The notes: generated from the letters alone by a model not told the origin. A stretch of 64,000 bases of DNA from Psammoneis japonica (GCA_008632985.1 QPGO01000020.1:434001-498000), one strand, 5' to 3'; counted from the stretch's first letter, positions 1,930-48,968 are shown. Numbers and translations are program-made.

Positions 1930-3500
1930 TGCAGTTGTCTTGGGATGGCATTGGAGGACTCCAGTGGTGGGTTGCCAGGGACATGTCAACAACCATGGTT
2001 GGGGAGCAAAGGCCTTGTCTTGTGTCAATGCAGCACCTTGTCTCTCTGACATGGCTGGCTTTGGCCCAGCCAGCCAACCTGCAAGGACAAGAAAACCATC
2101 TGTGCAACAGTGCAAGTGCTCTGTTGTCTTGGGATGGCATTGGATGACTCCATTGGGTCCCAGAGGATGCAATGACAACAATGGCTGGGAAGCAAATGCC
2201 TTGTCTTGTGTCAACACAGCACCCTGTCTCTCTGACATGGCTGGCTTTGGCCCAGCCAGCCAACTTGCAAGGACAAGAAAACCATCTGTGCAACAGCGTG
2301 CAGGTGCTCTGTTGTCTTGGGTGGCTTTTGGTGACTCCATTGGATCCCAGAGGGCACAACAGCAACAACGGTTGGGAAGCAAAGGCCTTGTTTTGTGCAA
2401 ATGCAGCACCTTGTCTCTGTGACATGGCTGGGTTTGGCCGAGCCAAAAGAGCCAATTTGCAAGAAGGATGAGGGAACCATCTGTGTGACAGTGCAAGTGC
2501 TCAGTCATCTTGGGATGGCTTTTGGTGACTCTGTTGGATCCCAGAGCACACAACAACAACAGTGGTTGGGAAGCAAAGGCCTTGTCTTGTGTCAACGCAG
2601 CACCTTGTCTCTCTGACATGACTGGCTTTGGCCCAGGAGCCACCCCACACCCACAGAGACAAGAAAACCATCTGCACAACAGAGTGCAAGTGCTCAGCTG
2701 TCTTGGGATGGTGTTGGATGACTCCGTTGAGTTGCAGAGGATGCAATGGCCACAGTGGTTGGGAAGCAAAGGCCTTGTCTTGTGTCAGCACCCTGTCTCT
2801 TTGAACATGACTGGGTTTGGCCCCCCCAGCTGCTCCACCTGCAAGGACAAGAAAGCCATCTGTGTGGCAACGCAAGAGCTCTGCTGTCTTGGCATGGCCA
2901 TGGATGACTCCATTGGGCCCCAGAGATGCAACAAAAGCAATGGCTGGGAAGCAAAGGCCTTGTCTTGTGTCAATGCAGCCCTTTGTCTCTCCAACATGAC
3001 TGGGTTTGGCCCAACCACCCCACCCACAGAGACAAGAAAACCATCAGTTGTGCAACAGTGCAAGTGCTCAGTTGTCTTCGGATGGCTTTTGTTGTCTCCA
3101 TTGGATCCCAGAGGACACAACAACAACAGCGGTTGTGGGGCAAAGACCTTGTCTTGCATCAATGCAGCACCTTGTCTCTGTGACATGAGTGGGTTTGGCC
3201 CAGCCAAGAACTGATTTGCAAGAAAGACAAGGGAACCATCTGTGCGACAATGCAAGCACTCAGTTGTCTTGGGATGGGCACAATGCTCTCCATTGGGTCC
3301 CTGACAAGGAGGTGAGGACAACAACAGTTGGGAAGGAAAAGCCTGGTCTTGGGCCAAAGCAGCCCCTTTTCTTTTTGATGTGATTGGCTTGCTTTTGCCC
3401 AGCCACCCCGCCTGCAGAGACAAGAGAGCTTTCTGCACTGTGTGACAGGGCAAGTGCCCAGTTGTCTTTGGATGGCATTGGGTGCCTCCATTGTGTCCCA
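1930..3500. repeat. Tandem satellite A, ~185-195 bp unit, ~8-9 degenerate copies
   Basis: The core GCAAAGGCCTTGTCTTGTGTCAA..CAGCACC recurs at ~2006, 2192, 2379, 2573, 2766, 2951, 3140 and 3336. An isolated partial unit lies at ~5030-5110. Confidence 0.9.
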
Positions 3501-3739
3501 GGGGAGCCAACAACAGTCACTGAATGGAAATTCATGGTGTTCCCTGTCTCTTGTTTGGATGGAAAACCATGAGATGACAGAAGAGCATGACCCACCTTCT
3601 TTACAAGGTTGGTCTCCAAAGTTGTCATTTTGCTGGCACAAAGGGTGTGTTTCTGAGCTTTCTGGAGAGAGGCGATTGTCTTGTTGGCAGTGGCAAGTTT
3701 TGAACACACCAAATGGCAAAAAGGTGTTGATTGAAGTCC

Positions 3740-6700
3740 CGGAGCTGGGAGCATGCAGCACGATTGTGAAAATTTCAATCTCAACAAGAACACATCAATG
3801 TGACAAAATCAAACTTGTTGAATGCGTGTGTGACATTGATGGCTGAATGATTCATTGAGGTTGTTTCAAATCATTCAAACCATTGCATCATGACAAAAAC
3901 ATTGATTTTTAAAACAAAATTGTGTCTGAAAAAGAGATGCCAACGGGAATCAACTGACGGCCAGGCTTGCATTTTGGCTGAAAACACAAATTGTTGCTCC
4001 CTCACAAGACACAAAAAATGCAAACTCAAGCAGCATCCAACATCTGACAATGAGAGCATTGGGACAGGCAATGGCATTGCAGATGGGATGGAGCAAAATG
4101 CAGGACACAAGGTGAGAAAAACAAGTGGTGAGTGCACGGAGATCAGGTGTGCAATGCAAACAACTGACACTGGTGCACATCTTTGCACACAGACATGATC
4201 TGCACATGCAACCTGAGCTGCAGTGGAAGATGGGCAATGGGGAGGGCACAAAGGTGAGCAGAAGCAGCCCATGAGACAAGATCATGCTGAGAAACACAAG
4301 ACATGCCCATCACCTGATCATTGGCACAAAGTTTTCTCTTGTTGCAAGCAATGCTTTGGCCTGCCAAAAAGAGGGAATTCAAGACAGATCATTGCAGGAC
4401 AGCATTGTTGCCTGGTGCAAATGATTGCAGAGAGAATGAGAGTGGTTGCAAGGGAGGGCACAAGGACCAAAACATCACACTCCTCATGCAGGGACTGTGA
4501 AGGACAACAGGAACTGGTGGGATGCAGGAGAAAAACAAGAATGGGAAAGGGGAGCATTGTTCAGTGTGCAGTGTGGAAATGACAAACTGGAACATTTGCA
4601 AATCAGACAACAAGCAGCACACAGCCAGTGTGCAATCAGGTTAAAAAGACAATTGGATGTCGTCATTGTCAGAAATGAACAATGTCAGAAAGTTGTTGTG
4701 AACACATGATTGTCAAGATGGAAACAAATGCAAGTGACAAGTTTCATCAACTGTTGTTTGTGGGCAGATGTGTGAGAACAATGTCAAAACAAGTTGGTGT
4801 GAAAAATTGTCAAGAATGTGTGTGCAATGCAACTGATTTACATTGGCCATTTAATCCCAATTGGAAGCTTGAAATGACCACTAAATTCCCTTTGTCAATG
4901 GTCATTGAGGACTTGTCAAGAACTCACAATTCTGAACAAGAGAATGTGAACTCTGAACAAGAGCCACAATGTTTTCCAGACGGACATCACTGGCTTTGGC
5001 ACAGCCACCACACCCCTGCAGAGACCCCCAGTGAGCCATTTGTGTGACAGCACAAGTGCTCAGTTGTCTTGGATGGCTGCAGGAGACTCCATTGGGTGCC
5101 AGGGGATGCAACAACAATCACAGGAATTGTGTGCCAATGCATGAGAAATTTGAGATGTTCACGTGGAATGGTTGGAGAGTGGAGGTCATCAGCCATGGTG
5201 GGCAGTGGCTTCGCTGTTGATGGAAGCAGCAGCAGTGGCAACAGTTGCTGGGTTGTCAGCTGGTGCTGCTGCAGCTCTGGCCACAGGGCCTTGGTGTCTC
5301 TGGGGGCTCCTCCTGCTGCACTCTTGTGGCTGAGGTTGAGCTTGAGATCTGCCAACCCCACCTGCATCACCATGGCCAAGACGAGCACTGCGGCACCAGA
5401 ATGGTTGGCAGCACAAGGATGGCCACCACCGCCTCCACAGGGGCAGTTCACACATTTTTTAGCAGCATTGTTGCAACACACCAAAGAGAAAATGTGGTTG
5501 TGAGGGCATCAAGCAGACTGTGGAGATTGAATCCCGGAGCATTGAAAAAAGATGGTGTGCGGCAGCAAGACTGTGAAAATTTCCATCTTAACAAGAGCAC
5601 ATTGACATGACAAAAAATGAGAAATTGACACACTGCAGACACACATGAAAAATCTCAACAACTGGATGATTCAATCAAGTCATTTCAAATCATTCAAACC
5701 TTAAAAATCAAATGTGAGTGTGGAATTTTAAAACAAAATTGTTGTCACTTAAAAAGTGATGCTGACAGGAATCACACCAGGCAGACAGGCTCAACATTGC
5801 CACAAAAACACAAATCATCATTCCCTCACAAGACACAAAACACAGGACACAGGGCTCATCCAACATCATGACAATGACAGCAGCAAGGGAGGGCAACAAA
5901 GGAGCACAGAGGGGGGAAGGACAATGCGGGACACACGGTGAGAGAGAGAGAGGCAGGAACTGAGTCAACGAGTGCATGGAGCTCAGGCAACAATGCAAAC
6001 AACCAAAGCTTTGGTTGCTCTTTCCACTCAGACATGTTGGCATGCAAGGGGAGCCAGAAAGAAAGATGGCCTTGCAGGGGCCACACAAAGGCAGCAGAAA
6101 CAGTGTTTGCACCAAGCACATTCAAAACAAAAAACACACAATGCTCTCATCTGCTGTTGCACACTCTTTTCTTTTTTTTCTTTTCTTTGCAGACAACACT
6201 TTGGCAAACTAGCATGAAAAACAAAAGAGACAAGGTCGCACACAAAGGTGAGCAGAAACGCCATTTGTGCTGAGCCAAGTCCGTTCGAAACAAAACACAC
6301 ACAGCGCTCTGTTTTGTTGCAAGCTCTCTTTTCTCTTTTTTGCAGGCAACACTTTGGCAAACCACTGGCATGATGAACAAAAGTGACAAAGTCACAACAG
6401 TGTGGAACAAACAACATGGTTGTGATGAGCAAGAGCGGCTGCAAGGGATGATGCAATGAGTGAAATGTCACACCACCATGTGAAGAGGACAGAAAATGAC
6501 TGTGACACGGGAGCACTGGCAGGAGACAGGACAAAGCCAAGGAGGGAAGAGCAGGAAACAGGAAGCAAAAACATGTTCACTGCAGAAATGATGAAACACA
6601 GCAAGCACAAATCACATCACAAGAAGCACACAGCCATTGTGAGAGCATCTTGGTGAGACCATGAATGAATGTTGTCGTTGTCAGAAATGAGCAATGTCAG

Positions 6701-7010
6701 AAAGCAGTCACAACTGCACCCTTGTAAAGAACAAACAATTGCAAGTCACAAATTTCATCAATTGTCATTTCCTGCTTTGCCTCTTTGTTCAATGTGGGCA
6801 CAAACCGAGTGGTGCAAAAATCATTGTGGCTGCAATCTTGTCAAGATTGAGTGGACAATGAGACCTGCAGATCAAGCACATTTTCCTGCTTGGAATGTAA
6901 AAACAATTGTTAAATTTGCTTTGTTCACAATTGACAAGCACTTGTTAAGAACCCAGAGTTCTTGTTCAGCGCAAATGGGTTCTGAGCAAGAGCCACAACA
7001 TTTTCCAGGT
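3740..7010. repeat. Degenerate direct duplication (~3740-5000 vs ~5550-7010)
   Basis: Shared anchors in the same order: TTTCAAATCATTCAAACC (~3864/~5683), CCCTCACAAGACACAAAA (~3999/~5823), CACAAAGGTGAGCAGAA (~4247/~6241), CAAGAGCCACAA..TTTTCCAG (~4958/~6987). Confidence 0.75.
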
Positions 7011-7623
7011 GGGAGTGTGGGGGGAGCGAACAGCAGCACAACAAGAGAAACAGGAACAGGCTCCTCCTTTGTGGCCAGATCATGGCACTCTGTTGTTGTG
7101 AAACCCATCAAAGTGAAAGGAGACAGAGCAGAGCTGCTCACAGCTCAGAGGAAAGGAGAAAAGGAAGATCAGTGCAATGCCTGCCCGCCACACGGCAACA
7201 CCACCCCTTGGTGCTGCACCTGCCACTTGGCGGCTCGCGTCTTGAATAAAATAATGTCTCTCCAGCCATCCTTATGTAAATTGTGATCGTTTAACAACAG
7301 CCTAACATTTAACAAAATTTATTTAAGGGGTTTTCTTGCCTCAGACACAATGGTTGAGCACATGCTACAGCCCCCTTGCCCAGATACGAAGAGAGATCGA
7401 TAACATAGATTACAGTACCGGTACGTAGATGATGGTCGGTTCAGATGATGATGGATGGTTTAGATCTTCTCCGCTACCGCCACTCTATCTCTAGAGAGAG
7501 TGTCTCGCTATCTCTGTGCCTGGTTCTCCGAGCGATTTTTGTTCTTCTCTCTTCTGATTGTTCTATCATCAATCTTTTCATCTTTCACCTTTCTCAATTG
7601 CTGATGCAGTTCGATTCGAAAAC

Positions 7624-9888
7624 ATGAAACTGTGGAATGTGACTTCGATTTTAGCGCTTGGGGCACTCGTTCCTCTGCCACGTGCAGCCGGGCAAAAACC
7701 CAACATCGTTTTGATTGTTGCTGATGACCTCGACGCAGACGAAATTCGTGTAACTGCACAAGATACAAGCACCTGGCCAACGCACACTGGCGCTGAAAAG
7801 CTCGGACTCTGGACAAAACCGCACAACCCGAACATTCTCACCCCGCACATTGATGGATTGACAAGTGAAGGTATTCTGCTGACGAATTTTCACGTTAGTG
7901 CTACGCAATGCACCGCGAGCCGCTATGCATTCTTGACTGGACGACAGGCTGCCCGAGGCGAAGACCTTCTGAATTTATTTCCCACCGGATCACTCGTTGA
8001 ACTGGGTTGGAACCCAGGCTTGTTGCGGGAAGAAACCAACGTGGCCAAATCACTAAAGGCAGAGGGTTACCGGACCGGCATAATCGGTAAGTGGCACAAC
8101 ATCCCCAGGAAAGATAGATCCAAGCTACCCAGGTTTGTTCCTGCCGACCATAGGGCACATGCAACCTATGAACACACGGTGACTGTTCAAAAGAAACTCA
8201 AGACGCACTATGATGCACACGTTGCATACTTGAGTGACGGATACGGCTGGGATGTAATTGATAGAATGGAATGGGGTAATTCTATTCTGAATTTAAACTG
8301 GCAGTGTGAAGGCGCACTGGAGTTCATTGAAGAGAGTGCTGATCAACCCTTTTTCCTTTACGTTGGCCTTCCTGTTCCTCACGGTCAATACGCACATAGC
8401 TTCAACGATCTCACAAAGTTTGACGATCGAGTCACTTCTAAAGGGATCATCACCAACGTAGCCCAGGTGTTGCCTCCAGTATCCGACGTATATGCACGAA
8501 CGGATGCAGCCGGTGTTAGAAGAGACTATGCCATGGCAACTCGGATGGATGACTTTGTTGGTGCGATTCTTCAAAAGCTGGATGATTTGGGATTACGACA
8601 GAATACCCTCTTTATCTTCACTAGTGACCACGCAAGCCGTGGCAAAAATAGCTGCTATATTGGCGGTGCCAAAGTGCCGTTTCTGGCTCGGTGGCCACAG
8701 AAAATCCAGCCAAACACAAAGAGTAGGTCGCTCGTGGCCAGCGTTGATGTAGCCGCTACCCTTGTTGATGTTGCTGGCGGAAATGCACCCAAGGACATGC
8801 TTGTCGATGGACAAAGCTTCAAGCAAATGCTGCTTGGAAAACCCGAACCAGAAAACTGGCGAAACAGTCTCATTCTCGAAGCAGAGACCACCCGAGCTGT
8901 TGTTACTAAGAAATGGAGCTATATTGCTAATCGGGTGACACCCGAAATTGCTCAGAAAATGGCTAAACGACCGGGAGAAGTATTTTGGTCCGGAAAGGAC
9001 CATCACAACTATCAAACAGAGAACACATATCCTGGGTACTGGGATGCGGATCAACTGTATGATCTTGAAAAGGACCTTTATCAGCAGACTAACATCTTTG
9101 AAGATCCAAAGTACAAAGCAATTCTCAAGTCACTCAGAGGTGAACTGGACCTTTACATTGCGACGCTTCCGCACAGCTTTGGGGAGTTTGGAAAGGGGGT
9201 TTACGCAGATGCAGCCATCCAGCCAGAAACCCTGAAATCAGAAGGTTATGTCCAAGGAGAACTCAAATCCAATGCTTGCGGTTGGACTAAGCAATTCGGA
9301 CCACACAAACTTGAACCAGCAGCTGGAAGATTCTATCTGAGACTGCCGAAAAGGGCCAACGACGGGCTTCAAGCCATGTTGAATGCAAACCTCCCGCATG
9401 CAGACAGTTATCAAGTCGCTTTGAAGTTTACGTTTGGACGGAAACAGGGACTGCTAGTGCCAGGCATTATCGTTTCACAAATCAAAGAGACATTCAACGA
9501 TGGAACCGGTCGTCTGGGCGTCAGTTTGAGGCGAGCAGAAAGCGCGGATAAATATGAGTTGTGGCTTGCCGTGAACCCATCGTCATGGATGAAAGGACCT
9601 CCTTTCGTTCAGGATCTTTTGGGTTTTAGCGTTACTAAGTCTTCGAGCGAGAATTTGCAACTGGTGTATGAACTAGAGAGTGGATCAAACCGAAGTGATG
9701 ATTGGGTTTTGACCGGAACGTTGCGTAATCTTGATCGAGCCATAATTGTTTCAAAGCTCACCGGTCAACTGGACTCCTCGCAGGTGTTTATTACGGATGA
9801 GAACCCCGGATGCGTCGATCCAGCAAAATACCAGAATTCATCCCTGCTGGAGCGTCGTTGTGACATTAGGTTATTAAAGATAGATTGA
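7624..9888 (+). CDS. Secreted Cys-type (formylglycine-dependent, S1) sulfatase with a C-terminal extension, intronless
   Basis: ATG at 7624 followed by a signal peptide (MKLWNVTSILALGALVP). Motifs: KPNIVLIVADD, TPHIDGL..EG, active-site CTASRYAFLTGR, GYRTGIIGKWH, PFFLY..PH, NTLFIFTSDH, QLYDLEKD. Uninterrupted ORF. Confidence 0.92.
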   Translation: MKLWNVTSILALGALVPLPRAAGQKPNIVLIVADDLDADEIRVTAQDTSTWPTHTGAEKLGLWTKPHNPNILTPHIDGLTSEGILLTNFHVSATQCTASRYAFLTGRQAARGEDLLNLFPTGSLVELGWNPGLLREETNVAKSLKAEGYRTGIIGKWHNIPRKDRSKLPRFVPADHRAHATYEHTVTVQKKLKTHYDAHVAYLSDGYGWDVIDRMEWGNSILNLNWQCEGALEFIEESADQPFFLYVGLPVPHGQYAHSFNDLTKFDDRVTSKGIITNVAQVLPPVSDVYARTDAAGVRRDYAMATRMDDFVGAILQKLDDLGLRQNTLFIFTSDHASRGKNSCYIGGAKVPFLARWPQKIQPNTKSRSLVASVDVAATLVDVAGGNAPKDMLVDGQSFKQMLLGKPEPENWRNSLILEAETTRAVVTKKWSYIANRVTPEIAQKMAKRPGEVFWSGKDHHNYQTENTYPGYWDADQLYDLEKDLYQQTNIFEDPKYKAILKSLRGELDLYIATLPHSFGEFGKGVYADAAIQPETLKSEGYVQGELKSNACGWTKQFGPHKLEPAAGRFYLRLPKRANDGLQAMLNANLPHADSYQVALKFTFGRKQGLLVPGIIVSQIKETFNDGTGRLGVSLRRAESADKYELWLAVNPSSWMKGPPFVQDLLGFSVTKSSSENLQLVYELESGSNRSDDWVLTGTLRNLDRAIIVSKLTGQLDSSQVFITDENPGCVDPAKYQNSSLLERRCDIRLLKID

Positions 9889-14024: not shown

Positions 14025-14333
14025 GATTTTTATTCGTTCTAAAAGCTGTATATCGAATCATTGAATTCAACGGAAAAAGTGATCGACAAACCAATTCTAA
14101 CCTTAATCCCTGAATATATTTAAAAAAAATCGACGAAAGAACTTCTGTCGATGACGTCAAACGATCTTGGAGTTCAACCCAGAAATTTGAAGTTGATACG
14201 ATTGAAGCAAGAATGAAGTGAAGATCTATCTCCGGGTTCACGACACGCAAGCTCGTTTGAAGCTGGTCATCAGTTCCACTTTTTGTTTACAGAACACAAT
14301 TCGGTCTCCGGTCAAGAAGAAGGAAAAGCAACC

Positions 14334-15134
14334 ATGAAATTCATCCTCGTCGCGTCTCTCGTTGCCGGCACTGCCGCATTCGCTCCCGCTGCACAGAAGC
14401 AGGGATCCACGGTCCTGAGTGCCACTGGAAAGGAAGCATTTGGTGATGCCCTCGGTGCGCAGATGCCGTTGGGATACTGGGATCCCATGGGTCTTTGTGC
14501 TGACGGTGATCAAGAAAACTTTGACCGTCTCCGGTGCGTTATAATAAGCCTTCGTCGCCTGTACCGCAATATTCCATATCCATCACTCTCTCACTCGATT
14601 GCCTCTCGTCTTTTATTTTAGATGGGTGGAACTCAAGCACGGACGTATTGCAATGCTCGCTGTTGTTGGATACCTCACGACTTTCGCTGGTGTCCGATTC
14701 CCGTAAGTAGTAATTCCAGGCGATGTACATTTCGTATTGAACTTTCACAAACGCATCTTACACGTAATCTTGCTCTTATCTGTCTTCACAGTGGAGCCGA
14801 GGACATCCCATCTGGTTTCGCCGCCTTGGACAACCTCCCCGGAATGGTCTGGGCGCAGATGATTGCCACTTGGGCCATGATGGAGGCTGCCAACCAGGAT
14901 CAGTCTATCTCCCCCTGGGGAACTGGCACTGGTGAGTCCACCGCCGAATTCAAGGGGGACTTCCGCAATGGCGCTCTCGACTTTGGATGGGACAAGCTTG
15001 ACGATGCGGCAAAGATGCGAAAGCGCGCCATTGAGCTCAACAACGGCCGTGCCGCACAAATGGGAATCCTTGGACTCATGGTCCACGAGAAGCTTGGAAA
15101 TATCTATGATATCCTTCCGTTGGCCCAGCACTAA
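14334..15134 (+). CDS. Lhcf: Fucoxanthin-chlorophyll a/c binding protein (Lhcf family), 3 exons: 14334-14533, 14622-14702, 14792-15134
   Basis: Bipartite leader MKFILVASLVAGTAAFAP. Motifs GYWDPMGL, DRLRWVELKHGRIAMLA (across intron 1), GDFRNG.LDFGWD, RAIELNNGRAAQMGILGLMVHE. GT-AG introns 14534-14621 and 14703-14791 restore the frame. Confidence 0.97.
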
Positions 15135-16439
15135 ATCATCCCGTATAGTGTAAAGCATTATAAGCTTTCATGCCAACAAACTCTTCTTGCTAGTAGTAGA
15201 AAAGCGTCTTGTCTTTCGGTGGTAAACGTGCAGGCAACAGCATCCAAGTGGCGCGTTGAAGAATCTGAATCTGTGGACCAAGTGAGCGGATCTGAAACCG
15301 CCCTACTTTTCTGCAACAAAGGCTGACTTGCAGGATGAGTTCAAGAAACTTTGAAAAAGAATCTAAAGTTGAATGATTGCCCACCTAAAGATAAAGAGAA
15401 GCTGAAAGACGAGATCGCCAAGATTAAAGAATCCATCCATCCATCCACTTGTCCTTTCCATCATTGGCACAGGCGCTTGCACAGCATCAGCAGCGAGCGC
15501 AGCACCAGTGCTCACATCATCAGCACAGGCGCTTGCACATCATCAGCAGTTGGCAGCGAGTTCAGCACAGGCTCAAGTTCAAGAAATGTGGTGACGTTGA
15601 TTGCCCATGGTTCGAGTGCTCACTGAGAAAGATCTCTTCCTGTTTGCAAGTGGCGCTGGCATGATTTGCTCCATCGCACAGACCTTTCTTCGTCTCAAGT
15701 TTGACAGACAGCTGCAAGTCAAGTGGGCGGAGTGGAAAGGGGGTGGCCCATCCACCCAAAACTCATCACCACCGACCACGTGGCACAGCTTCTGGCATTC
15801 TTCCAATGACAAAACACAATTTTTTTCTGATGGTGCCCCCAACCCATGACTCACATCATGCAAATCTCATGGTGTTGTGGTGAGAAAACACAGTGTGTCA
15901 TGCTGCAGTTGTGATGGTGCAGCAGCAAGATCACATTGGTGCGTGCATTTCTGGTGGCTTTGGCGATGTTCTTGCCTCTCCTTGTCCTGCTCACAGTGTC
16001 TTTTTTGTCTTGCTGTGCTCCAGAGCACATCAGTGGCCAGTTTCCACAAATTGACAATGTTGCAGATGGCGTGTGTGAGTGTCATTGCATGAATTTATTT
16101 GTGATGAATCATCGCCATTTGGCATGAATCACACCCATTCACCACAAGAAGGTGTGGTTAAAAACAAACAAATGTCCATGCAAACTAACAAATGTCTGGT
16201 GATGTCAACACACAGTCATTGATCCCAACAAGCAAGGTGCAACTCAACAAGTTTGCATCTCCAGACCAGTTGCTTGGCGGGATTGTGCTTTGCTTGTCAT
16301 CGCCGACCAGGTGATGACTGTGTGTGGCATTGGGTCTCATTTTCAATTTTTGCTGTCAAAATCAATCGGTTGACTTGCGTGTCAAAACAATCATTCTCCA
16401 TTGTCCCATCCGTTTGTTGCATGTTGCTGCTGCAATCAA

Positions 16440-17330
16440 TCATCAACAATTGTGAGTGCAAGCAATCACTGCCAAGTCAATCTCGACTGAACCACCGCCA
16501 AGTCCAGTTTGTAGATTTTGGCACAGATGACCTGTTGGTCATCTTCATCATCCAAGCCATCCTGTGCTTCTTTCACCACCTGTTGATCTCGCTCAGTTGT
16601 GATGGCTCTGCAGAGCTGTTCCCACCACCCAAGTCGTCTGCTTGCAACATCTTGCTTGATCTCCATGACCATTTCAACAAAGAACTTGTCAGCCTTTGGC
16701 AACCACCCTTTGCTCTTCCTTGGTGTCTTGCGCTTCCTCAGTCCCGCGCTTCCGTCTGTGTCTTTTGGCTTTGCTGCCGTGAAATGCTTGAGTGTCCTGA
16801 CAACCTTTCTCTTCTTGCTGGATGCGCCCGCATCATTTTGGATGTCAACGAGCTTTTTCGCAGCCTTGGTCAGAGCTGTGACTCATGCCGCAGTCTTTGG
16901 CTTGTCTCTGATCAACTTGACCATTGCGTCCCATCTCTCAACCAACTCCATGTTGCAATTGGACTTCAAAGTCCCATCCTTGTTTTGGCTCTTGCAGTTG
17001 GCACACCATGCATTGCAGTTGTTCTTGAGGAGCATGTGGGCAAACGCCTTGGCACATGCTGTGCCCGTTCTCTTGTTCTTGGTGGTGCACTCTTTCCAGT
17101 GTGTGTCTTCAACAATCGGGTGCAGCGTGCAGTCATGGAACACCACCTGCAAAGCCGGGTTTCCCAAGCAATCTTGGAATCTTTCTGCGGACGGCAAGAT
17201 GCAATTGTTGTCATTGCAGTGTGCACAAAGAGCTTCATTCATGGCAGGGAAAGCAAGTGACGACACTGTTGGCAACTGCAATGGCTGTTCTTGTTGCACC
17301 CTCCATTTGCACTCACTGTGGAGCTTGTCC
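16440..17330 (-). pseudogene. Decayed ORF of unknown (probably TE-associated) family
   Basis: Protein-like fragments AFAHMLLKNNCNAW..TLKSNCN and DKFFVEMVMEIKQDV..WWEQLC across frames. Cys occurs where Tyr would be plausible. Confidence 0.35.
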
Positions 17331-17899
17331 TGATGTGCCTGGTGAGCAATTCAAAACGTTTCATCTTAAATGTCTGAACATGTGTTTGCCATGATGTCCA
17401 ATGTCTCTTTACAGCCAACTCTCCAACAGCTGCTGACTGCAAGAGGCAATGGCTTCATGCTGTGACAACAGCAAAAGCAGTCTTGGACCAGAGTGCAAGT
17501 TGACAAGCAACCACATCATCAACTGTTGCCACTGCTCACCACCCCACAATGTGAAAACTCCACCGTAAAGTGACTGTGCATGCATTGTGCATTTGTTGGC
17601 GCTCTGCACCCATCTGTGGTTGTGGATTGCTGGGACAAGCAGGCGTGATGAAGCTTGCTGCAGGTTGCGACACCAGTTCTGTAATTTTTTAGGATTGAAC
17701 AGTGATTGGAGGTCTGTGGTGTTGGCAGATTCGGGTCTGGAGAAACAGGTGGTGGGAGAGTCGTGCAGAGTGTGCTTGGGGATGGAGAGAAAAAGGGTTT
17801 GCCGAGGGTGCAGACAGATGATTGAGAGGAGGAGTTGGTGATTGCAGGATGGCGAAGAAGAAAAACTTGACATGCAGAGAGGTGGCTGGAGAGGACAAA

Positions 17900-20660
17900 G
17901 CTGAAGTTGAGACTGAGGATTTGAGAGGCCCAGAGTTGGGGGGGTTGCAGTGTGATGGGAAGAGCCAAAGCAGTCTGGTGAAAGTTGTTTCCAGGCCTCA
18001 TTGGAGCAGGCAAGGAGGTTGGAGGGTGCAAGAAGTGAGTTGGTGAAGGCGGAGAAGGATGCTTGGGAATTAGACAGGGAGGATGGGCTTGACCAGGGCG
18101 GTTTGGGAGGAAGGGTTGGGATGGAGGAGGAGGCAGTGGTGGAGGTGCCAAAGAAGAAGACATGGAAATGGCACCCAATTCCTCCAAGGTGGTTGAAGGT
18201 GAAAGGGAGGGGGAAGAGTCCAGCTTGGTTGATGGCATCAATGATGTTGGAGCCATGAGCAGATGATGCAAAACTGCCAAGGAGCTTGTCCCGTGCACTG
18301 CTGAGGTGAGCCTTGCTTGACAGGTTTTCAGGGATGGGCAAACCAGGTGCAGGAGGTGGGGGAGCTGGTGGTGCGGTGATGTTGATGGCCAAGAATTGAT
18401 GGGTGGATGGGGCATTTGGTGGTGTGGAGCGGGGGTGAGTTGAGTGCCGATGTTGGCAGGGTGTTTGAGGGGGTGGTCATCTGAGATGCCGGCAGGGTTG
18501 AGGCATGCTTGTTGGCGAGAGAGGCACAGACCGCAGAGTGGCCCCATCATTTTGGTGACGGCGCAGACGGTGTCTCGGATGTGATTTGACAGATGGCCTT
18601 TGCACATTTTAGAGCAGGCAAAGGTGTGATTGCCACATGGGTCTGGGTGGACGTGGCCACATGGGCAGTCGTGTTGGAGGAGGTTAGAGGAGATGATTGG
18701 AAACAGAGCTTCCACAGGAGAAGAAGCATGAACAAGTGCAGTGGGAGCCGGTTGGAGGCATGAGCTTGGGAGAGAGAATGAAGGCACAGGCTTGCCAGTG
18801 GAGATGGCAAGGATGGAAGGGCTGGCTGCACAGAAGGACTGGCAAGGATCAGAGGGAGAGTGCTGTGCTTGTGATGACACAGATGAAAGCATTGTGAAAG
18901 ACCCCAGAGGTTTTGGTGTTTGACAGTGTGTGTCAGGGAGGTGAGGGAATGGGAGTCAAACTGAAGGAGGGTGGGAGCACAGTGGTGGAAGATGCAGCAG
19001 AGGGAAAGGGTGGAGTGTGGGTTGGACCATGAGCCAAGAGCAGTGGAGTGGCTTGAGGGAAGGTGGAAGATGGCACCGCTGCTGAGTGGGATGCTGTGTT
19101 TTGTGTGCCGCACAGATCTGATGAGGGAGGTCAAAAGAGCTGGGACGGCAATGGCAGAGATGTTGTGACAGCTGGTGCTGCCTGAGGAGACAGGTGAGCT
19201 GGTGATGAGTTTGGCAGCAGAAGGGAATGGATTGGTGTGTTTGGTTGGGTGGGCAAGAAAATGCAGGGAGTGGCCAATGATTTTGTCAGCAAAGGGAGAT
19301 GTCCATTGAAAGGGGAGTGGGAGGGCATTGGATTGCATCAGGTTGCAGCATGCATCAGCTGCCAGAAGGTGGGTGATGGAAGGGATGGAGCATTTGTGGA
19401 AGAGTGTGCTTTGTGTCTGTTTGTCGGTTGGGCGGGTGGCAAGGCGGCGAAGGTCAGTGGCAAAGGAGGTGACCTTGTCATGGAGAAAATTGAAGGCAAA
19501 GGTGGGTGAGCCGATGGGTTGGCCGAGAAAGCAGACGCCGGTGGTGATTTCAGGTTTGATGTGGGGGGTGTTGTCGCGGGGGTTGAGGAAGGCAAGGGCT
19601 TCAGAAAGAGCTGCAGCATTGGCGGGTGGGAGGCGGTTGTTGGGAGAAGTGCCGGTGATGGATGCAAGGATTTTTGTCTTGGAGGCATTGAGCTTGATGC
19701 CAAATTGGGGGCCGCAGGTGGAGAGTTGCTCAAGGAACCAAGGAAGCTGAGAAAAAGGAAAGGAAAATGTGGGTGTTGCAGACACATGAGGAAGTGGTAG
19801 ATTTGGAGCAAGGAGAAAGTCAGTGATGCAGCTCATCGTTGACAGGGTTGAACGCGTGGACCAGAACAAGGCAGGAAAAGACTGAGCTGAGGGGGCAGCC
19901 TTGAGCAAATCCTTTGGGTTGAGAAAAGGAGGACCATTGCAGGTGATGGTCATGACACCAGCAAGTGTTGGGATCTTGTCAGAGTGAGTCAAAGAAAGGC
20001 AGTGAAGTGTGGCATTCATTGGAGTTTGCAAGGGTGTCGCGGCAAGCATCACGGGAGCATTCATTGAAACAGTTGGATGGGTCAAGGAAGAGGAGAGCTT
20101 TTGTTGGTGCAGAGTCCGGTTGAAAGAAGCATTTGATGTTGGTGCAAGCAGCATTCACAAGGTGGTTAAGGCCACCTTTGATGCCAACTCCGAATTGGCC
20201 AGAGAGCAGGAGGTTGGAGGCAAAAGTGGTGGCAAGGAGGAACATGACAAGGGTGCCAATGATTCTTTGAAGGGCCATGCCAACACCAATTGGCCAGAGT
20301 TTAGAAAGGTTGGATGAATCCTTGTGCAGGGCAAGGAAGCAGTTGGGTGAAAAAGCAGGTTTGATGGATGTGGGGATGTGCAGGTTGGTTGGATTGGAGG
20401 ATGGAGGGAGGGACAACAGGAAATCTTGGAGTTCAGAGCTTGCAATGCTTGCAAATTTGGCTGATGTCTTTGGGGTTGTCGCAGCTTGCATCTGCACTGC
20501 ACAAAATGCAACAGTGAAATTCCGTTGGTTTCCTGCCACAATTTCCTCTGTTTTGAAATGCATGGAAGGGACATTTTGAAGATGTCTAACAGCTTGCAGG
20601 GCTTGGAATTGATCCAAAGCAGGATGGCATTGACTCATTGCTTGGCACACCATTTTCACA
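17900..20660 (-). mobile_element. Decayed non-LTR retrotransposon (CRE/RLE-type): RT, Zn-knuckle and restriction-like endonuclease
   Basis: RT motifs LHK..LWPIGVGMALQRI (~20290), QFGVGIKGG, LLFLDPSNCFN, MSCITD at the YxDD position (~19816-19836), GIKLNASKT, GVCFLGQPIGS. C-terminal CPCG..DPCGNHTFAC, HIRD and HPANI (RPADI-like). Frameshifts and stops. Confidence 0.82.
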
Positions 20661-23394
20661 TGGCAGCCAAGTCACGTTGGAAAAAGATAGAATGTTGAGT
20701 TTTGGTGACCCTCAAAACAGCCCTTCCATGACTTTGTGAAGCAATGACATGTCTTTGCTTGCCTGGTGGAGAATGTGCATGATGTCTCCATTTGTCCCAG
20801 CAACAATGCCTTGCAAATGCAAGGATGTGAGTGTTGCAGTCTGAGTCTGCACAACACAAACAAGCAGTTTGCAAAAGAAGAGTGCAAAACTTTTCCAGCA
20901 CACATGCATTGGATGCATGCATTGTTCAAGCAGAAGAAACAACACACACACAGTTGTGTGTTGTTGCAAATGTCAATCTTGTGTGACAATCGTGGATGCC
21001 TGTGAATGGCAGATTGATTGCACAGAACTGATCAGAAGTCTGAAATTTCAAATGCAATCAACAGATGATGTTGACACACAAGGCATCAATGTCAGTTGCA
21101 TCTGGACAATCTGTTGTCATGATCACATTCTCCAAAAGGCCTTTGCTCTGTGGGAGCAGCACAAACACTTTGGGCCATTGAGAACTTGTTCAGAGAAACC
21201 CAAACTCACAGAGCAAATTTCAGTCTCACAACTTCCACTTTTTGTGATTTGTTCCACTTTTGTTTGCACTTGTTCTTCAAGTGCAGTGTACATCACTGTC
21301 CTGTTCCCAGCATTTTTGGTTCTGCTTGACTTTTTCCAAAGAAGATGGCCACAGAATTTGTTGTCACATCTTTGTGGTGCAACACTCTGAAGCTTGCTTT
21401 CTGCAATTTCCATTTCAGCATCACTTCTTTCATCTCTTCAGCTTTGCCACCACCGCACATGCAGCAACAACACCTTTTCCAATGCTTCTTAAAATCATGT
21501 GGGTGGGAGACTCTCCATCCACAAAGCACCATGGATTTGTGGTCTCCAAAATGACATCCACAGGAAGGCAAGAAATGCAATCACAAAGCTCATGACAAAA
21601 AAAAAATGTGGCAACCTCTGATCCAGGCTTGGCTTGAAGCTCACAGCTCTGTGGCAGATGAGCTGCATGCTTCAAAGGAAAAAGGGACAACAAGGATTGT
21701 GAGATGAGAGATGAAATGTTGCACATGCATGCCAGTGTGCCTGCAGCCAATGAACTCAAACAAACAAAAGTCAGCTCAAGGACACTTGCACTCCAAATGT
21801 CTTTGGCAGGCACCAGGGCAAGGAGATCCAGGCCTGGAGTGTTTTCCCATTCTCCAGGGCAACAAAGCATGGTTGCCATCATGTGTGTAAACAAACCAGC
21901 AAGCACTTGAACAGACCAACTGCACCAGAAAGTTTTCAGGCTCACAATCCATGAGAGGCTCTTGCACATTGACTTGCCTGCACTGCCACAAGAAAAAAAA
22001 GAATGGCGCCATTGGAGTGGAGTCATGCCCAATTTTTGTGGCATGTCCATGGCTTGAATGTGAGCTGATTGTGGCTGCATTGGCTCCAGATGAGATGCTC
22101 TGACCATTGCAGGAACTGGACAAATGCTGCAAAACTCATTTTCTTCTTCTCTTCAGGCACCCTGTTCTTTGTTTTCAGTCTGTGTTCATTTTGACCTTCA
22201 TTGTCTGATTTTTGGTGCTTCAATTTGTTGGGATTGGTGATTGTGATGGCTCCAGGGTGCAGGTGGCTGAGGTGCAGTGCGCTGCTGCACACTTTTGGGA
22301 GAATTTTTGGAGCTTGGGCTTCAACAAGATGTCACAGTTTGAAGTTTTTTGTGTGCCCATTTTTGATGGCTGAGGACCAACAAGGCAAGCGTGCAGTGAC
22401 ATGAAGTTGTCAGCCCTGGCACCTGTGCAAAAGATTTGGGACTCACTGAGGTTGTGTTGTGCTTCACAACAGCAGAAAATTCCAGTCAATGCAATGACAG
22501 TGCACCTGACTGCACCCACTGGGCATTTGGTCTTTGTCCATGTGCAATCCATGCTGTGCATTGGGCAAAGCCAATTTAACAAAGAGTGGCGCCAAAATGA
22601 CACTTGACAAACAAAGCAAGGATGTCAACATGAAAAAGCCACAGACTGCCTTGCATTTTGTTGGACAAGCACTTTGTCATTCTGTTCAAGGTGGGCACAC
22701 TCCTAAAAACACATTGTGTTTCTCTCTGGATGGAGCATCAACATTGTTGCCCCTTGTGTCATTTTTTGCATGGTTGCTTTGTTTCACAGCATCCATGCTT
22801 GACCAAGACAGACAAAAAACTCAGGCACTCTTTTGTTTGTTTGGCAGGTGTCAGCATCAATGAACAAGCTGGTGGCTTCACCATCACAAAAACAAAAAAG
22901 CTCCATCTTGTGGCAGCCCAACACACTCTTGTTTTGTTCGGGGCAGGATCCTCCATGAGTTGACAAGCCTGGCATTCACATTGACACACCAAACAACATG
23001 CCAAGAGTGCCAACACAAATGCAACACAGAACCGTGTGTGCCACAATGAGCAACAAACCATTTGTGGCAAAGGCACCCATGTTGTCAGACAGATGAGATC
23101 ATTTGCAATGATTGTGGTGTCTCAGCAGTCTCACATCAACTTGACTCACTCACATGACAGCAAGCAACTTGCCATCAAAAAACAGTGCAGATGCCCAAAG
23201 AATTGCCAACGTTGTTGTTGGCATGATTTTGTGAATGCTTGCATTGATTCAAAAGAGAGTGCAGGGCATGCAGCAGTGCCATTGTGCTGTGATGAAGAAA
23301 TCAGACTGCACAACCCAATGGGGCACAGAGAGATGGTGCAGAGGACAGGAAAAGGAAGCCATCGTCAGCGCCGTTTGCCCTCGGGGTGTTTCCC

Positions 23395-23815
23395 AGCTCA
23401 AATGCCTCTGCACATGAGTGGTGAAGGCAATCTTGTCAAAGAAAACAAGTGAGAAAGTGAAACAAAAGCACTGCATGATTGGATTGCAACAGAGAGCGAA
23501 AACGGGCATCGAGCCGTGTGGTGTGTCAGCGCCAAAATCTGTTTTTTTTCCATCTTGCGGGGTTGTCAGCCGATTGCCTTCCAACAAGCAATGCATGTTC
23601 ATTCTACATGACAGCAAAGACCAGTGGACAGCGTTGGCGTTGTTAAAAGGATTGCATCTGGTCTAAAAAGCCGCTCCGATTCATTCTCATGGTGTGTGGT
23701 GTTTTGAGTTTCGAGGTGTGATACGCAAACGTGACTGATGAGTCCCGTATACGCTCATAAAATCGCGCGGTCTGAGCTCGTCTCGCGCGTCTCAGTCGTT
23801 ACCGTAAAGTGTACG
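23395..23815 (+). repeat. Dispersed repeat / putative element end, copy 1 (mostly hypermutated)
   Basis: Collinear with ~49555-49935 (e.g. CTCATGGTG.GTGG, ACGTGACTGA(A)TGAGTCCCG, CTCAGTC.TTACCG). Confidence 0.75.
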
Positions 23816-25499
23816 TAGGACTTAGTAATAATTTTGAAAGTACCAAGATCTCACGAATGTTCTACATACGAAGTGATAGTATCGATTATACAAAGATGCA
23901 CAAAAATGATAGTGTTTGAGAAAATTAGCAACGGTCACGACACAAACAAAATCTCTCGAAAGCTTGCTCTTCGTTCGCTCACAACTCGTTGTCTCGCACG
24001 ATGTGTTGTTGTTCGCCAAGCAACGATTGCCGCGATCGCCCAGGATGGCTCGCCCTTCTTGCGGATAATAGAGAGCTAGCTCTTGTTTGGTGTTCCACAA
24101 CTAGTCATGCTTGTTGACGTGTTGTCTCTAGGTGGCGTAGGTGTTGCCAGTTAAGTCCAGAGGTCGGGGCAAATCGAATGCGTCTCTCCGGCCTTGAGTC
24201 CATGTCACTCTCGTGTCTTTGAGCGCAGGAAGTTGCCTGTTCGCTTGACCCGTCAGGTCACGGCTGTTGAAATAGACAGCAGCGTTCGTCTGTGAAGCAG
24301 CAAAAGCTCGCCAAGCAGATCATGCCGTTGACGGAACGCGGGTTTGGGGTTCCGTCGTATCAGTGACATGATACGGTAAGTCTTCACTCGTAGGGAGTGT
24401 TGATTTAGAACGCGGTTGACTCGCAAGTTCTCTTGTTGTTGCCGTAGTACGTCCCCCCTTTTTCTTTTTTTTGGATGGTAATCCACCCGGAAAATAGGAG
24501 AAAGCTTGAGTGCCATCTCTTGGTGGTGCTCTTGAGGCAATATTACCCTACGCAACCGATTCAATTGCGACTTTTGAGAATGGTGTGCTTCAATTGCTTG
24601 AAACACCCCTTGAACCTTTACAATAGAAGTAGAAATACTAAAAGTATGATGTAGCAATCTTTCTTGCATGTAATTTATTCCGTACGTGTGTCAATGGACT
24701 ACGATGACAGTCGTAGCGCTTGAGATGTCGTTGCATATCTTGATTTCATCGTTTTTGTTTTTGTACCATGCTGCTCTCTTTTTTTAGATGGGTTCCTCGA
24801 TGGGGTATTTGTTACGGTATGCCCCAACACGATATGTGTACTGGACTGTTTCTGCCAGCGAGTTTTGCTGTGGTACTTCTCAAAACGCGGCAAGTTGCGA
24901 TACGATGAAGAACGGAGTCTATGTTGTGAACAATGATAAATCGAGTGATGCTGACATTATTTGTCATTGTAAGCTACAGTACTAATTGTTGTAGGTGTAG
25001 ACTACAATCCGGTGCCGACTACTCGCATGTTTCTGCTTGCTACGGCGGCAGCCTGCAATGTAGCAAGACCGGGAATGATGTGGAAGGAGTTACCAGACGA
25101 CATTCCTCGCCACGACTATTTCCCCCGATATGGTCCTCTGAGTATGCTCCTGTTAACGCGGAATTCGGTTCGAGCATAACGAACGAAGTTGATTTCCGCA
25201 CCTATGTTTTCTTTCTTGGACGTGCGTGACTAGTCGTCGGAATGCCAGGGCAAATCTACGGGGAAGCGAGCTGGAAGAAAGAAAAGGCCGCTCGTGTCGT
25301 CGGCTGGCAACAAAGAATACGGTAATAAGCCCCAGGTACGGTCTGCTTGGGCATAGCCCGAGAAAACAGCTAGTGAAAAGTAAAGAATACTGTAGGTAGC
25401 AGCCTATATGTCTTGTGGGAGCTCACACTACTTTGTCGATATGACAGTACTCTCTATAGTCAGCATTAGGCATGTCCTGCACCAACTTCTTGTGGAACG

Positions 25500-42439: not shown

Positions 42440-45400
42440 CCCCAAAATAAAATACATCACAACAAACCAACAAGTGCACTGACATGATGTGCCTGGTCCC
42501 TTCTGTGGACTCGACTGACTGCTGTTGCAGTGACGAGCCTCGAGAGTCCACAAATGCGGTCACACCTGGCACATTGTTGACACACGAAAAAGGGCTCCAG
42601 TCCGATGAATTGATCACCCGTTGTTGCACGATTTGCCACATTGTAGACGAATCCAGTGTTGATGTTGAATTCTTTGTCAGTGGCTTCTTCCCCAACAAGG
42701 GACCAAGGATTGCTGCAATTCAAAAAAATTGTGAGGGATCAAAAGATGGAAGCGCTCACGCAATTGGGACCTGGACCTGACTTGTCACCTTTGGCGCGGG
42801 CTGCTTTAAAGGTGTTTTCAGTGCTTCTGAGCTGGGCACAATGAGGAGAAGTGGAGACTCCACAAGAAAGCAGAGGTTCAAATGTGTGCACACACCTTTC
42901 CAAGGAATGACCATGAGCAACTGCAGCACACTTTGGCCACAGCCGGGCTGCAAAGAATGAACTCCATGCCGCAAAATTATGTTGCAGTGATGCCTCATGT
43001 GGATCAAGCAGAAATGAGCAACATGCCAGCTTGAGCATTGCATCAAAGAACAGAAGGATTGGCGCTCCCCACCTCTGTTGTTGATTTTTCCTCTTGGTTG
43101 TTGCAGGGCTGACCCAGGAAGAAGAGTCACCAGAATGGGTTGTGGCCACTGTCTGTTTGGCTCACATTGATCCTTCAAATTTGCACCACCAGTGTCTTCT
43201 GTTTTCAAAGAGGTGTTCAGGTCCTTGGCAAAAAGATGTGGACACAGAGATTGCAGCTGTGGTGCATCAGCTGGAAACTTGTCTGCAAAATTTGTCAAAG
43301 GATGAGCCACAGACTCAGTGTGCAGTCATGCACCCCACTGTGACAGATTTGGGCTTCACAGTCTCATGGCAGGAGGGTGCAATTGCTGGCTGCCATGCTG
43401 TCAAGTGTTGCATCATTGTGCACCCTGGGTGATGCCCGCAACCCACACATTCACAGGTGGCAGTTTCAAATTGATGCTTTTCAAACAAACCTCATTTCAC
43501 GCAGCAAAAATTTTTTGCACCTGTCTTGCAGCAACCCACTTTTGGTGAGGGTTGAAATGGAGGGCAAACCTCAAGCTTCAAAAAATCACAATGCAGAAAT
43601 GCACAGAATCAGTGCCACAAGTTTTCCATCACAGGAAAATCAGCTCTGCTGTGCTGAACTGCCAAGCCCTCACAATCCTCATGCTCTTTGCAGAGTTCCC
43701 CCCCCCCCTTGGTGCCATTGCAGCCATGCTTTTTGTGCCATCAACTCAACACATGCGCTCTTGCTCATGTGACCAACCCACCACCCAGCTTTGTTCAATG
43801 CATGATCTGAAGATGTTGTTGCGCATGATTGACGTTCATTGTCAAGGGTGTCTGTAAGAGCATCTAACAATGAGCACTTTTGTGGCAGGCGTGTTTGTCA
43901 GCCAATGTGCACATGCTTCAAACAACCTGCTTCTTGTTCCCATCACATTGTTCTTGACCAATGGTGACAGCGAGGGTTGAGTGTGGTGCATGTGACTGTG
44001 CAGCATGATTGCAAATGTGCTGTGTGTGCAACACACACAGGTTGGCAATGACTGATCACATGATTGCATGAGCTGCTGTGTGCAACATTCTCACTCAGCA
44101 ACCTCACAAATCGCCCACACATCTGCCTTCTCCAAGATGACATCAGCATGGAAACTGCACCCCAAATCCATTGGCAGTGCTCTGTGTTTGCACATGCATG
44201 ATGCAAAACATGTCAGAATGGCAAGTGCTGTGGTCGTCAATGAGTGTCAAACTCAAGCTGATTCTGGGGGCATCTCACTCATCAAGCATGAGCACATTTT
44301 GTGCTTGCAGATGTTTGCTGGTCATCCCTGACTCTCAGTTGGATGAAAACAGATGTTGCACATCTTTTGTGGACAAAGCCATTGGCACTGTCTTTGTCTC
44401 TGCATGCAGTGACAGCTCTGACAAAGTGAGCAAATTGTCCCATGGTGGCTGCACATGCTGGAGTGAGGCTGAAAGAAAAGCTGTGACAATGAGCTGCCGT
44501 TTTTCAAGAAGTGAGATCCCTGCAAGCCTCCTTGTGTGCAGAGCTGTGTCTCCAATGCACCATGCACATGGCCTCAACATCATTTTGTGCAAAGTTGTTT
44601 TTTCATGAATGTCGCGCAATCACATGGCAAACTCTTCAATTTTTGAAAACATGGAAAAGCCACATGAGCTGGTTTCTTGCCTGGCACATGGGTCCACTGT
44701 GTTTGATTGGTGCTGTCTCAATGCCAAAGATTTCCTCACAAGCATTGCACCACATTTGCTGCAAACCCACTTTTTCTTGCAGGTTGCTTGAAGCAGCTCC
44801 CCGCCCACCTCTGAAGAGAGCAGCACACTGAAATGAGCTGTTGCAGCAAGAAAATCACACTCTCTAGTCAGAGCTGTCTCCAGCTGCCATGTGCACTTCA
44901 TCTCCCATTTCAGCTTGAACAGCAGCACTGCTTTTCTCTCACACAGAGCCTGGCTGCACTTCCAAGAGAAACCTTGCTGGAGGTGGCTGGAGGAGCGCAT
45001 CATCACCAAACCATGAAAGAATGGCAAGAACTGCTGAAAACCCTTCTTGCTCTGTTTGGCAATTGCCTCTGACTGGTGTTCACAAATGAGCTCAAACAAT
45101 TTGAGCACCAATTCAGCTGCTGCCTGGAATGCTGACAAAAAAGCCAATCTGGTCACTTGTGCTGGAACCTTGGAGAGGAGTTGCTGTGTGGCACCACCCA
45201 AATTGCTGCCACAGTGTGGCCACATTTTGCCATCGTTTTTCCTGGGTGACACATTTCACCTGGCAGCATCCATGGTCACCACATTTTGCACATCAGGCCA
45301 CATTTGGAAACGTGTGTGAAATTGCACAATGGCAGTTCCTGTCATGCAGCAACTGTGTGGACCACACCAGATCTTGATCTTGTTGAAGTTGAACTTCGGA

Positions 45401-47990: not shown

Positions 47991-48006
47991 TGGAGCAAAG
48001 CGAAAG

Positions 48007-48968
48007 ATGAGTAACGTCGAATGCGACGACAATGAAAATCAAGATCCGAACTCGGCTTCTCCTTTCTTGGGATCTCATTCACAAGTCGCCTCTCCCCATG
48101 TGTTGGGAAACCCAAGTGCAAAGCGTCGACGATGCGTTAAGGCTTTGAGGCCCATGCTGGTGGACTCTCCGCCGAAATCCGAAATGGAGCCTACTGTGAA
48201 GAAGGAGCTTTTCCCAGGATCAAACAATTCTTTCACTGTCACGTCATCAGGATTTACAGCACCTTCACCTCCCACTGGAACCCCTTCTGCATCGACTTCG
48301 TTTGGAGCTGCTACCTTTGCTTTTCCTTCTTCTACTACAAATTCTACTGGAGGAGCTACGACTGTTCCTGGAGCTCCTGCTTTCCATGTAGACCTAACGA
48401 ATCGCGGCACCCCGAACAGCAAACGGATTCGCAAGCCAAAAGCATCTGCTTCACCAGGAGCATTTCCATTCAGCATGCATCAAATCCATGCTCCTCTCAC
48501 CATGTCAGCACCTCAAGTCCCTGGCCACCAAGTTCCTGCCGCCCAAGTTGCTGGCGGCGGCCAGTCTAATGTGTACGATAACGGCAACGTATATTTGCTC
48601 AAGTTCCCGCTGGAGGACCGACAGATCAAGTCAGGAAACCAAGTGTTGAAGAAGTGCGTATGCGGGATTCGCAAACCTTTGAAACCCAGTATTCTGACCT
48701 CGTTCAAAATGCACCAAAGTCGGTAGAAGCGGACATTATTGTGAAGGAGATTGATGAATGTAAACGAGAGCTTGTAGCACTCGTAAACCGAAGCGACTCG
48801 CTCAGCAAAGATGAATTTCAAGAGTTGTACGGTATTCTTCAGTCGAATCGGATGGACGCAATCAACTTCGATTCCTTCGTTGGCACTGTGGAGGACATGA
48901 CAAACCTCAAGATGATCCGCAAGATTCTAAACCACTATGGCGATTATGTAGAGGACCACTACTGGTAA
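48007..48968 (+). CDS. Orphan Ser/Thr/Pro-rich protein with a helical C-terminus (one frameshift at ~48660-48700)
   Basis: ATG at 48007 right at the block boundary, putative NLS (KRRR). Continues in the overlapping ORF 48654-48968. Confidence 0.5.

Follow-up and report, generated by a model that had tools for sequence, protein, structure and literature searches.

Blocks depleted of TA and CG in a 64-kb window of Psammoneis japonica DNA suggest region-targeted hypermutation to TG and CA

The DNA analysed here is a single 64-kb window of the Psammoneis japonica assembly (GCA_008632985.1 QPGO01000020.1:434001-498000), and ~45% of it lies in four blocks in which the dinucleotides TA and CG are nearly gone and TG and CA are in excess (Table 1). 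A mutated repeat copy, paired with a relative in DNA of normal composition, was the subject of the original prediction for this region; the pair turns out to mark one edge of this window-wide pattern. The explanation that we favour, and consider on balance probable, is a region-targeted hypermutation of deamination type, with A>G at TpA and C>T at CpG, that would follow a logic like that of RIP with a different chemistry. This reading is drawn from sequence comparison, and several alternatives are weighed against it below.

Extent, composition and edges of the blocks

The blocks were first seen in per-kilobase dinucleotide ratios, and their limits were placed at change points in TA. For counting, we used block cores (1-6900, 16400-23200, 43000-47900 and 55300-61600; 24,903 bases) and compared them with 33,404 bases of outside DNA. 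The cores contain 70 TA, 229 CG, 2926 TG and 2780 CA, compared with 1379, 1908, 2405 and 2421 outside, and ~1,030 TA would be expected in them from the outside density. Expressed as observed/expected ratios (o/e), the blocks have TA at 0.04, CG at 0.16, TG at 1.76 and CA at 1.93. Blocks and outside DNA agree in their share of pyrimidine-purine (YR) steps (0.241 and 0.243, respectively) and in G+C (0.486 and 0.480), and the o/e of AA is unchanged (1.19 vs 1.16). A simulation in which all TA and CG of the outside DNA were converted at random to TG or CA closely reproduced the 16-dinucleotide profile of the blocks, giving CA 1.92 where the blocks have 1.93, TG 1.99 vs 1.76, and a YR share of 0.243 vs 0.241. 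The 4,959 bases of outside DNA that fall in no ORF of at least 80 aa have TA at 0.78 and CG at 0.96, and the block state is thus regional and not the neutral equilibrium of the genome.

All four blocks are equally saturated, and intermediate states occur in the window only at the edges. The seven edges are all sharp, with the change points of TA and CG 61-587 bases apart, and at five of the seven the CG domain is nested within the TA domain; edges that coincide in this way are what one regional determinant combined with a faster TA reaction would give. No gene lies inside a block: the genes sit between them, in four gene-bearing stretches separated by the four blocks, and conversion reaches to ~300-400 bases from genes on both sides and stops within a few hundred bases of coding regions. 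An ORF of 284 aa without a family match (47872-48723, + strand) spans the right edge of block 3. Within block 2, the segment 18000-20000 has a G+C skew of +0.49 to +0.50 and minus-strand ORFs of 355-535 aa, also without family matches.

Table 1 Features of the 64-kb window, in order of position (coordinates count from the first letter of the window)
Feature	Position	Strand	Remarks
Block 1	1-7247		Truncated at the start of the window; TA and CG nearly gone; contains the 186-bp array 1914-3402
186-bp tandem array, 8 units	1914-3402		14 of 33 YR columns split between TG and CA, 4 of these keeping CG in some units
FCP-type light-harvesting gene	14217-15131	+	TA-free state starts ~300 bases past the stop codon
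Block 2	15434-23605		TA/CG-free; between the 3' end of the FCP gene and the repeat 23277-23804
Repeat copy across the right edge of block 2	23277-23804	+	Left ~330-430 bases mutated, right ~100-200 not
Block 3	42455-48138		TA/CG-free; weak zf-BED match only
Young repeat outside the blocks	48905-49193	+	92% identical to 51465-51755
Relative of the ~500-base repeat, in DNA of normal composition	49441-49933	+	Lies 1.3 kb to the right of block 3
Young repeat outside the blocks, second copy	51465-51755	+	Pairs with 48905-49193
Block 4	55172-62701		TA/CG-free; tandem array 55768-58193 and hAT remnant
186-bp tandem array, 12 units	55768-58193		9 of 30 YR columns split between TG and CA; 2 also with CG, 2 also with TA
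Decayed hAT transposase	58751-60416	-	Residues ~267-770 of an 813-aa relative

A repeat that crosses a block edge

The repeat at the right edge of block 2 has its relative in a kilobase with TA at an o/e of 0.77 and CG at 1.34. The original prediction had described the two copies as collinear, and the homology is real and longer than it had noted: a transition-tolerant local alignment pairs 23277-23804 with 49441-49933, against 23395-23815 and 49555-49935 as first delimited. All seven pairs of strings that it had quoted as examples are present where it placed them. With strict local scoring the pair reaches 74, compared with 19.9 ± 2.3 (maximum 34) in 300 dinucleotide-preserving shuffles, which corresponds to z = 24. 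Raw blastn recovers the distal part only (23573-23804 vs 49719-49933, 67.5% over 234 columns, E 1.4e-11); strict scoring of the proximal part by itself gives 32, with shuffles at 18.5 ± 2.1, and setting transitions to 0 gives 118, with 200 shuffles at 25.8 ± 3.4 (z = 27). When YR steps were collapsed to one symbol pair in both copies, blastn aligned 371 columns at 71.7% identity (E 3.5e-38). The same collapsed comparison of the window with itself yielded no second strong pair of a block copy and an outside copy, the remaining matches having E-values of 1e-6 or worse.

Rfam and tRNA scans of the whole window gave no match, and the repeat is therefore not a known RNA gene. Beside the outside copy lies an ORF (50327-51280) with a weak endonuclease/exonuclease/phosphatase (EEP) domain, a counterpart of which is absent next to the block copy. 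When metagenomes were scanned with a conserved 19-base motif from the repeat, eight loci came up that we rejected as chance matches, given that the motif alone matches and that G+C is 0.61-0.68 in seven of the eight.

The prediction that the differences are directional, with both TA and CG giving TG or CA in the block copy, was borne out. Positions up to 23700 were taken as the in-block part of the pair and 23701-23804 as the distal part. Within the in-block part, the 23 TAs of the outside copy appear as TG in 6 cases, CA in 7, TA in 1 and something else in 9, and its 20 CGs as CA in 10, TG in 4, CG in 4 and something else in 2; TG of the outside copy is kept as TG at 16 of 25 sites and CA as CA at 13 of 28. 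Broken down by dinucleotide context, the 43 TA and CG sites of the outside copy comprise 26 with one transition, 10 with another change and 7 unchanged, compared with single transitions at 63 of the 337 sites with one of the other 14 dinucleotides (Fisher p = 3e-8, in an alignment that does not favour transitions). The distal part, predicted to be unmutated beyond 23700, retains 9 of 10 CGs and 2 of 3 TAs. The mutated domain does end inside the repeat, as had been proposed, although its edge lies at 23605 for TA and at 23363 for CG, to the left of the limit beyond 23700 that had been claimed. Transversions are numerous: the block part has 61 in 398 aligned columns, the distal part 8 in 89. Since the copies are this old, the outside copy is best regarded as a relative of the ‘before’ state and not as that state itself.

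Tandem arrays and a decayed transposase within the blocks

The blocks consist of satellite arrays and decayed transposon remains. The two 186-bp tandem arrays do not align with one another (scores of 20 and 22, vs a shuffle maximum of 23). In both, units differ mostly by having TG in one and CA in the other at the same column, with 117 such unit-pair differences in the array 1914-3402 and 158 in the array 55768-58193, compared with 30 and 25, respectively, for the next commonest adjacent double transition. Because TG and CA meet only through TA or CG, the ancestor of each array carried TA or CG at such columns, which was then resolved separately in each unit after the array had formed. Transversions between units amount to ~8%.

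The hAT transposase remnant is evident from a Pfam match to Dimer_Tnp_hAT (E 1.1e-7), from phmmer (best E 1.3e-44), from tblastn and from a profile search (E 2.7e-71); a word-based protein search gave no match for this ORF, and a full HMMER scan gave 105 relatives. The longest ORF (58688-60133) has no tyrosine in 481 residues, whereas 13 relatives have 1.2-3.3% Tyr. The six tyrosines of the best relative align to His in three cases, Cys in one, Trp in one and a gap in one, and among seven relatives, whose 58 Tyr cells are not independent of each other, the aligned residues include His 8 times, Cys 7 times, Trp 5 times and Tyr never. At the codon level, His results from TAY>CAY and Cys from TAY>TGY. 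Searching with a profile of 35 relatives revealed remains at 58796-60407 and nowhere else.

We also scanned with Pfam 117 of the 186 block ORFs of at least 75 aa, covering blocks 2 and 3 in full and blocks 1 and 4 through a hand-picked selection; in this set, no domain except that of hAT dimerisation passed the curated score. Most of the scanned ORFs had no family match, and block 3 contains a weak match to zf-BED (E 0.048; 44623-45255, - strand). Long ORFs are expected by chance in the blocks, because in TA-free DNA the only stop codon is TGA.

The repeat pair, the tandem units, the loss of Tyr from the hAT frame and the simulation agree with each other, and together they support the original interpretation that DNA with a TA/CG-bearing ancestor was mutated, as opposed to a composition that was intrinsic from the start.

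Host and genes of the window

The window is nuclear DNA of a chlorophyll-c alga and is most like that of a diatom, or a close relative of the diatoms. We place the host in or near this group because the best solved relatives of its FCP-type light-harvesting gene are diatom FCPs and the nearest named relative of its 2OG oxygenase is a diatom protein (47% identity). Besides these two, the genes outside the blocks encode a bacterial-type sulfatase, a GH53 glycosidase, an amino-acid transporter and a GNAT acetyltransferase. A run of the same sample (X2) contains spliced contigs of the FCP gene with GT..AG joints, skipping 88 and 89 bases (14532-14621 and 14702-14792); its contigs provide little or no cover over block 2, contig cover being no measure of expression.

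The sulfatase gene (7558-9885, + strand) is a single exon of 776 aa with Sulfatase and SGSH_C domains. It lies 300 bases from block 1 and shares its contig with the FCP gene. The encoded protein matches proteins from marine Verrucomicrobiota, Kiritimatiellota (Pontiella) and Lentisphaerota at 51-59% identity over ~65% of its length, and a similarity search with it returned bacterial look-alikes only. From these relationships it looks like a bacterial gene that was taken up by the alga.

Copy number and agreement with reads

Contigs of a public DNA run, which may be the assembly's own source, match block 2 with 0-3 differing letters per piece of 387-3264 bases. At an identity of at least 80%, 1,896 related contigs can be placed on block 2, and transitions occur at 855 of the 1,140 places where they differ; judging from these contigs and from summed contig depth, most of block 2 is multi-copy. 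The stretch 21893-23854 has single-copy contig depth and is fully converted. Directly to the right of the repeat, at ~23.9-24.6 kb, summed depth is 2,000-7,600, vs ~60-140 for single pieces, and TA and CG are normal. Copy number alone thus does not decide what is targeted. The target may be a chromatin domain, irrespective of copy number, or the family at 23.9-24.6 kb may be too young to have been converted. At 24273, 24440 and 24441, most related copies of this multi-copy family (~23900-24600) have a letter other than that of the window.

Sequence context, strand choice and signs of activity

The TAs that are left in the blocks have a distinctive context. TTAA accounts for 25 of the 70, vs 50 of 1379 outside (Fisher p = 1e-16), and ATAT, ATAC, GTAT and GTAC together for only 1 of the 70, vs 31% outside. 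That TTAA was spared and RTAY removed suggests a sequence-specific agent or protein. The 229 leftover CGs of the blocks are enriched for sites flanked by G or C (GCGG 29, GCGC 24 and CCGG 16), and TCGA and ACGA are depleted. Both strands are hit alike, with 2926 TG vs 2780 CA in the block cores, and the choice between TG and CA showed no strand runs within the blocks (absolute autocorrelation at most 0.075).

Some weak signs suggest that the process is possibly still active today. Of the 40 best-supported among 1,175 differences between the window and the run, five fall within block 2 and appear in every read at their position, and four of these five set TG or CA against CG or TA. Outside the blocks, 11 of the 16 substitutions in the young repeat pair are YR-step transitions (p = 0.0025 vs a generous null), and a third, partial copy of this ~290-base repeat, at 51880-52090, contributes one column in which TA, TG and CA all occur. 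The young repeat has an internal 37-base tandem (49004-49086), and its copies bracket both the outside copy of the ~500-base repeat and the EEP-domain ORF.

Origin of the blocks

Across each block, the self-complementary YR dinucleotides TA and CG have been driven by single transitions to TG or CA, with the two strands equally likely to be affected at each site. Under region-targeted hypermutation, DNA bases would be deaminated, giving C>T at CpG, where the cytosine is probably methylated, and A>G at TpA. The responsible agent would be sequence-selective, converting RTAY almost fully and largely sparing TTAA, and would be guided either by silent chromatin rich in repeats or by the repeats themselves. 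The effect is that transposon genes are destroyed, with Tyr and many Arg codons lost, and that every TA-bearing signal (TATA, AATAAA, TAA and TAG) is removed from the blocks with G+C unchanged.

Some observations count against a targeted process of this kind. The absence of strand-run clustering is unlike single rounds of RIP or of APOBEC/ADAR editing, and the many transversions, ~8% between array units and 15% in the repeat pair, show that the blocks are old, so that a slow accumulation is compatible with them. Within the 64-kb window we found no candidate gene for a RID-type methyltransferase or a deaminase, and we know of no eukaryotic enzyme that deaminates adenine in double-stranded DNA. 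A more specific proposal is an undescribed genome defence of the diatom lineage, which would edit double-stranded DNA in place by sequence-specific deamination of A in RTAY and of C in CG, with TTAA spared; we put this forward tentatively, as a possibility that falls short of being probable. A literature search, with most subscription journals outside its reach, returned no description of a joint conversion of TA and CG to TG and CA in repeats, and the signature, as seen in one 64-kb window, thus seems undescribed.

The alternative that survives best is a slow and passive decay in two parts within long-methylated heterochromatin, in which CpG would be lost through deamination of 5-methylcytosine and TpA through context-biased errors of replication or repair. 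We consider it rather unlikely, yet it accounts for a good deal of what is seen. Heavily methylated genomes reach a CG o/e of about 0.16, which is the level of the blocks; the blocks are old, given the transversions between array units and in the repeat pair; strand choice looks random site by site; and the loss of CG is less complete than that of TA, with edges up to 587 bases apart, as two separate processes might give. The depletion of TA is harder to reconcile with passive decay, however. By our estimate, an o/e of 0.04 requires a rate of TA>TG/CA several tens of times that of the reverse transition, which exceeds the classical CpG effect, and we know of no spontaneous chemistry for so strong a bias. 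All four blocks are moreover equally saturated, with intermediates in the window only at the edges; the sparing of TTAA next to the wiping out of RTAY looks like enzyme specificity; and at each of the seven edges the limits of TA and CG are 61-587 bases apart.

It is very unlikely that the composition is intrinsic or selected, with the blocks originating from a TA- and CG-avoiding source or with selection having removed both. A precedent for such a composition exists, as CpG and UpA are reported to be jointly suppressed in RNA viruses and in cytoplasmic RNA (PMC3829696, PMC3985648). In the blocks, however, the repeat pair, the split columns of the arrays and the Tyr>His/Cys replacements of the hAT frame all show ancestors that carried TA or CG, and the losses in the pair are mostly single transitions (26 of 43) and not any change that would remove TA or CG. 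Four unrelated contents (two different satellites, the hAT remnant and unclassified repeats) also share one state.

Editing at the RNA level followed by copy-back can be set aside as extremely improbable: hyper-edited transcripts of mobile elements (ADAR-type A>I, APOBEC-type C>U) that were reverse-transcribed and inserted would leave a dominance of transitions among mobile-element remains, both of which are seen, but the blocks hold satellites and a hAT DNA transposon and not retroelements alone, the array units were converted after the arrays had formed, an edge lies within a repeat, conversion extends to ~300-400 bases from genes on both sides, the two strands are hit equally and without runs, and AA is unchanged (1.19 vs 1.16) even though ADAR also edits A that follows A. 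An artefact of sequencing or assembly, in which modified bases of silent DNA are misread, has an equally slight chance of being correct; heavy modification is common in DNA like that of the blocks, and the sole run that contains the window may be the source of its assembly, but misreads at symmetric sites would conflict between strands whereas the k-mer contigs agree to within 0-3 differences per 387-3264 bases, the hAT frame is open for 481 codons with coherent homology, and related copies vary in their choice of TG or CA as independent mutation predicts.

Implications

If a directed process did shape these blocks, mutational silencing of transposons would not be limited to fungi, and genomic adenine, besides cytosine, could be its target. 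If the process were in addition a defence that edits double-stranded DNA, it would be the first natural case of hypermutation of genomic DNA by adenine deamination and the first RIP-like process outside fungi, and it might give a function to the RID-related DNMT4 of diatoms or to an unknown deaminase. An activity that produces A>G at TpA on duplex DNA would be of interest to base-editing research.

There are also practical consequences for the analysis of such genomes. Converted repeats are missed by ordinary similarity searches, as illustrated by the hAT ORF, which needed a full HMMER scan, and by the repeat pair, for which the blastn E-value went from 1e-11 to 3e-38 after YR steps had been collapsed. 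Repeat annotation, gene prediction and composition-based binning will all be misled in such genomes, and spurious long ORFs abound. A TA o/e below 0.1 together with a CG o/e below 0.2 and TG and CA near 2 provides a search image that can be applied to any genome.

Comparison with known systems

In RIP, a process of ascomycete fungi, C:G>T:A transitions fall preferentially on CpA and convert it to TpA, so that TA goes up and G+C goes down; it saturates repeat domains, in some cases reaching into the flanks, and it is set off by sequence duplication above thresholds of length and identity, needs a RID-type methyltransferase and takes place before meiosis. The blocks resemble its products in that dinucleotide-bound transitions saturate a repeat domain and ruin transposon genes, and in that gene islands alternate with mutated blocks; RIP is likewise described as producing transitions only, bound to a dinucleotide context (PMC2621366). 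The differences are considerable, however. The blocks lose TA (o/e 0.04) and gain CA (1.93) with G+C nearly level (0.486 vs 0.480), half of the events in them are A>G, strand runs are absent, the neighbouring multi-copy stretch at 23.9-24.6 kb is untouched, and the host is an alga and not a fungus.

Among reported findings, DNMT4 alone connects diatoms with the machinery of RIP; it may form one family with fungal RID and is reported, with its function unknown, from 31 of 60 diatom species (PMC9998398). We regard it as a lead and not as evidence; nothing in the window connects it with the blocks, and a cytosine methyltransferase would not explain the A>G changes in the blocks.

Methylation-driven decay of CpG, as in vertebrates and plants and in the TCG/CpG hypermutation of basidiomycete repeats, is similar in that CG is converted to TG or CA on both strands, as in the blocks with their CG o/e of 0.16. 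Decay of this kind leaves TA untouched, whereas the blocks lose TA even more strongly than CG (0.04 vs 0.16) and do so within shared edges. Hypermutation by ADAR or APOBEC enzymes has in common with the blocks that deamination-type transitions disable mobile elements. These enzymes act on RNA or single-stranded cDNA, leave clustered and strand-asymmetric changes and require copy-back; in the blocks, by contrast, satellites and a DNA transposon have been hit in place and symmetrically.
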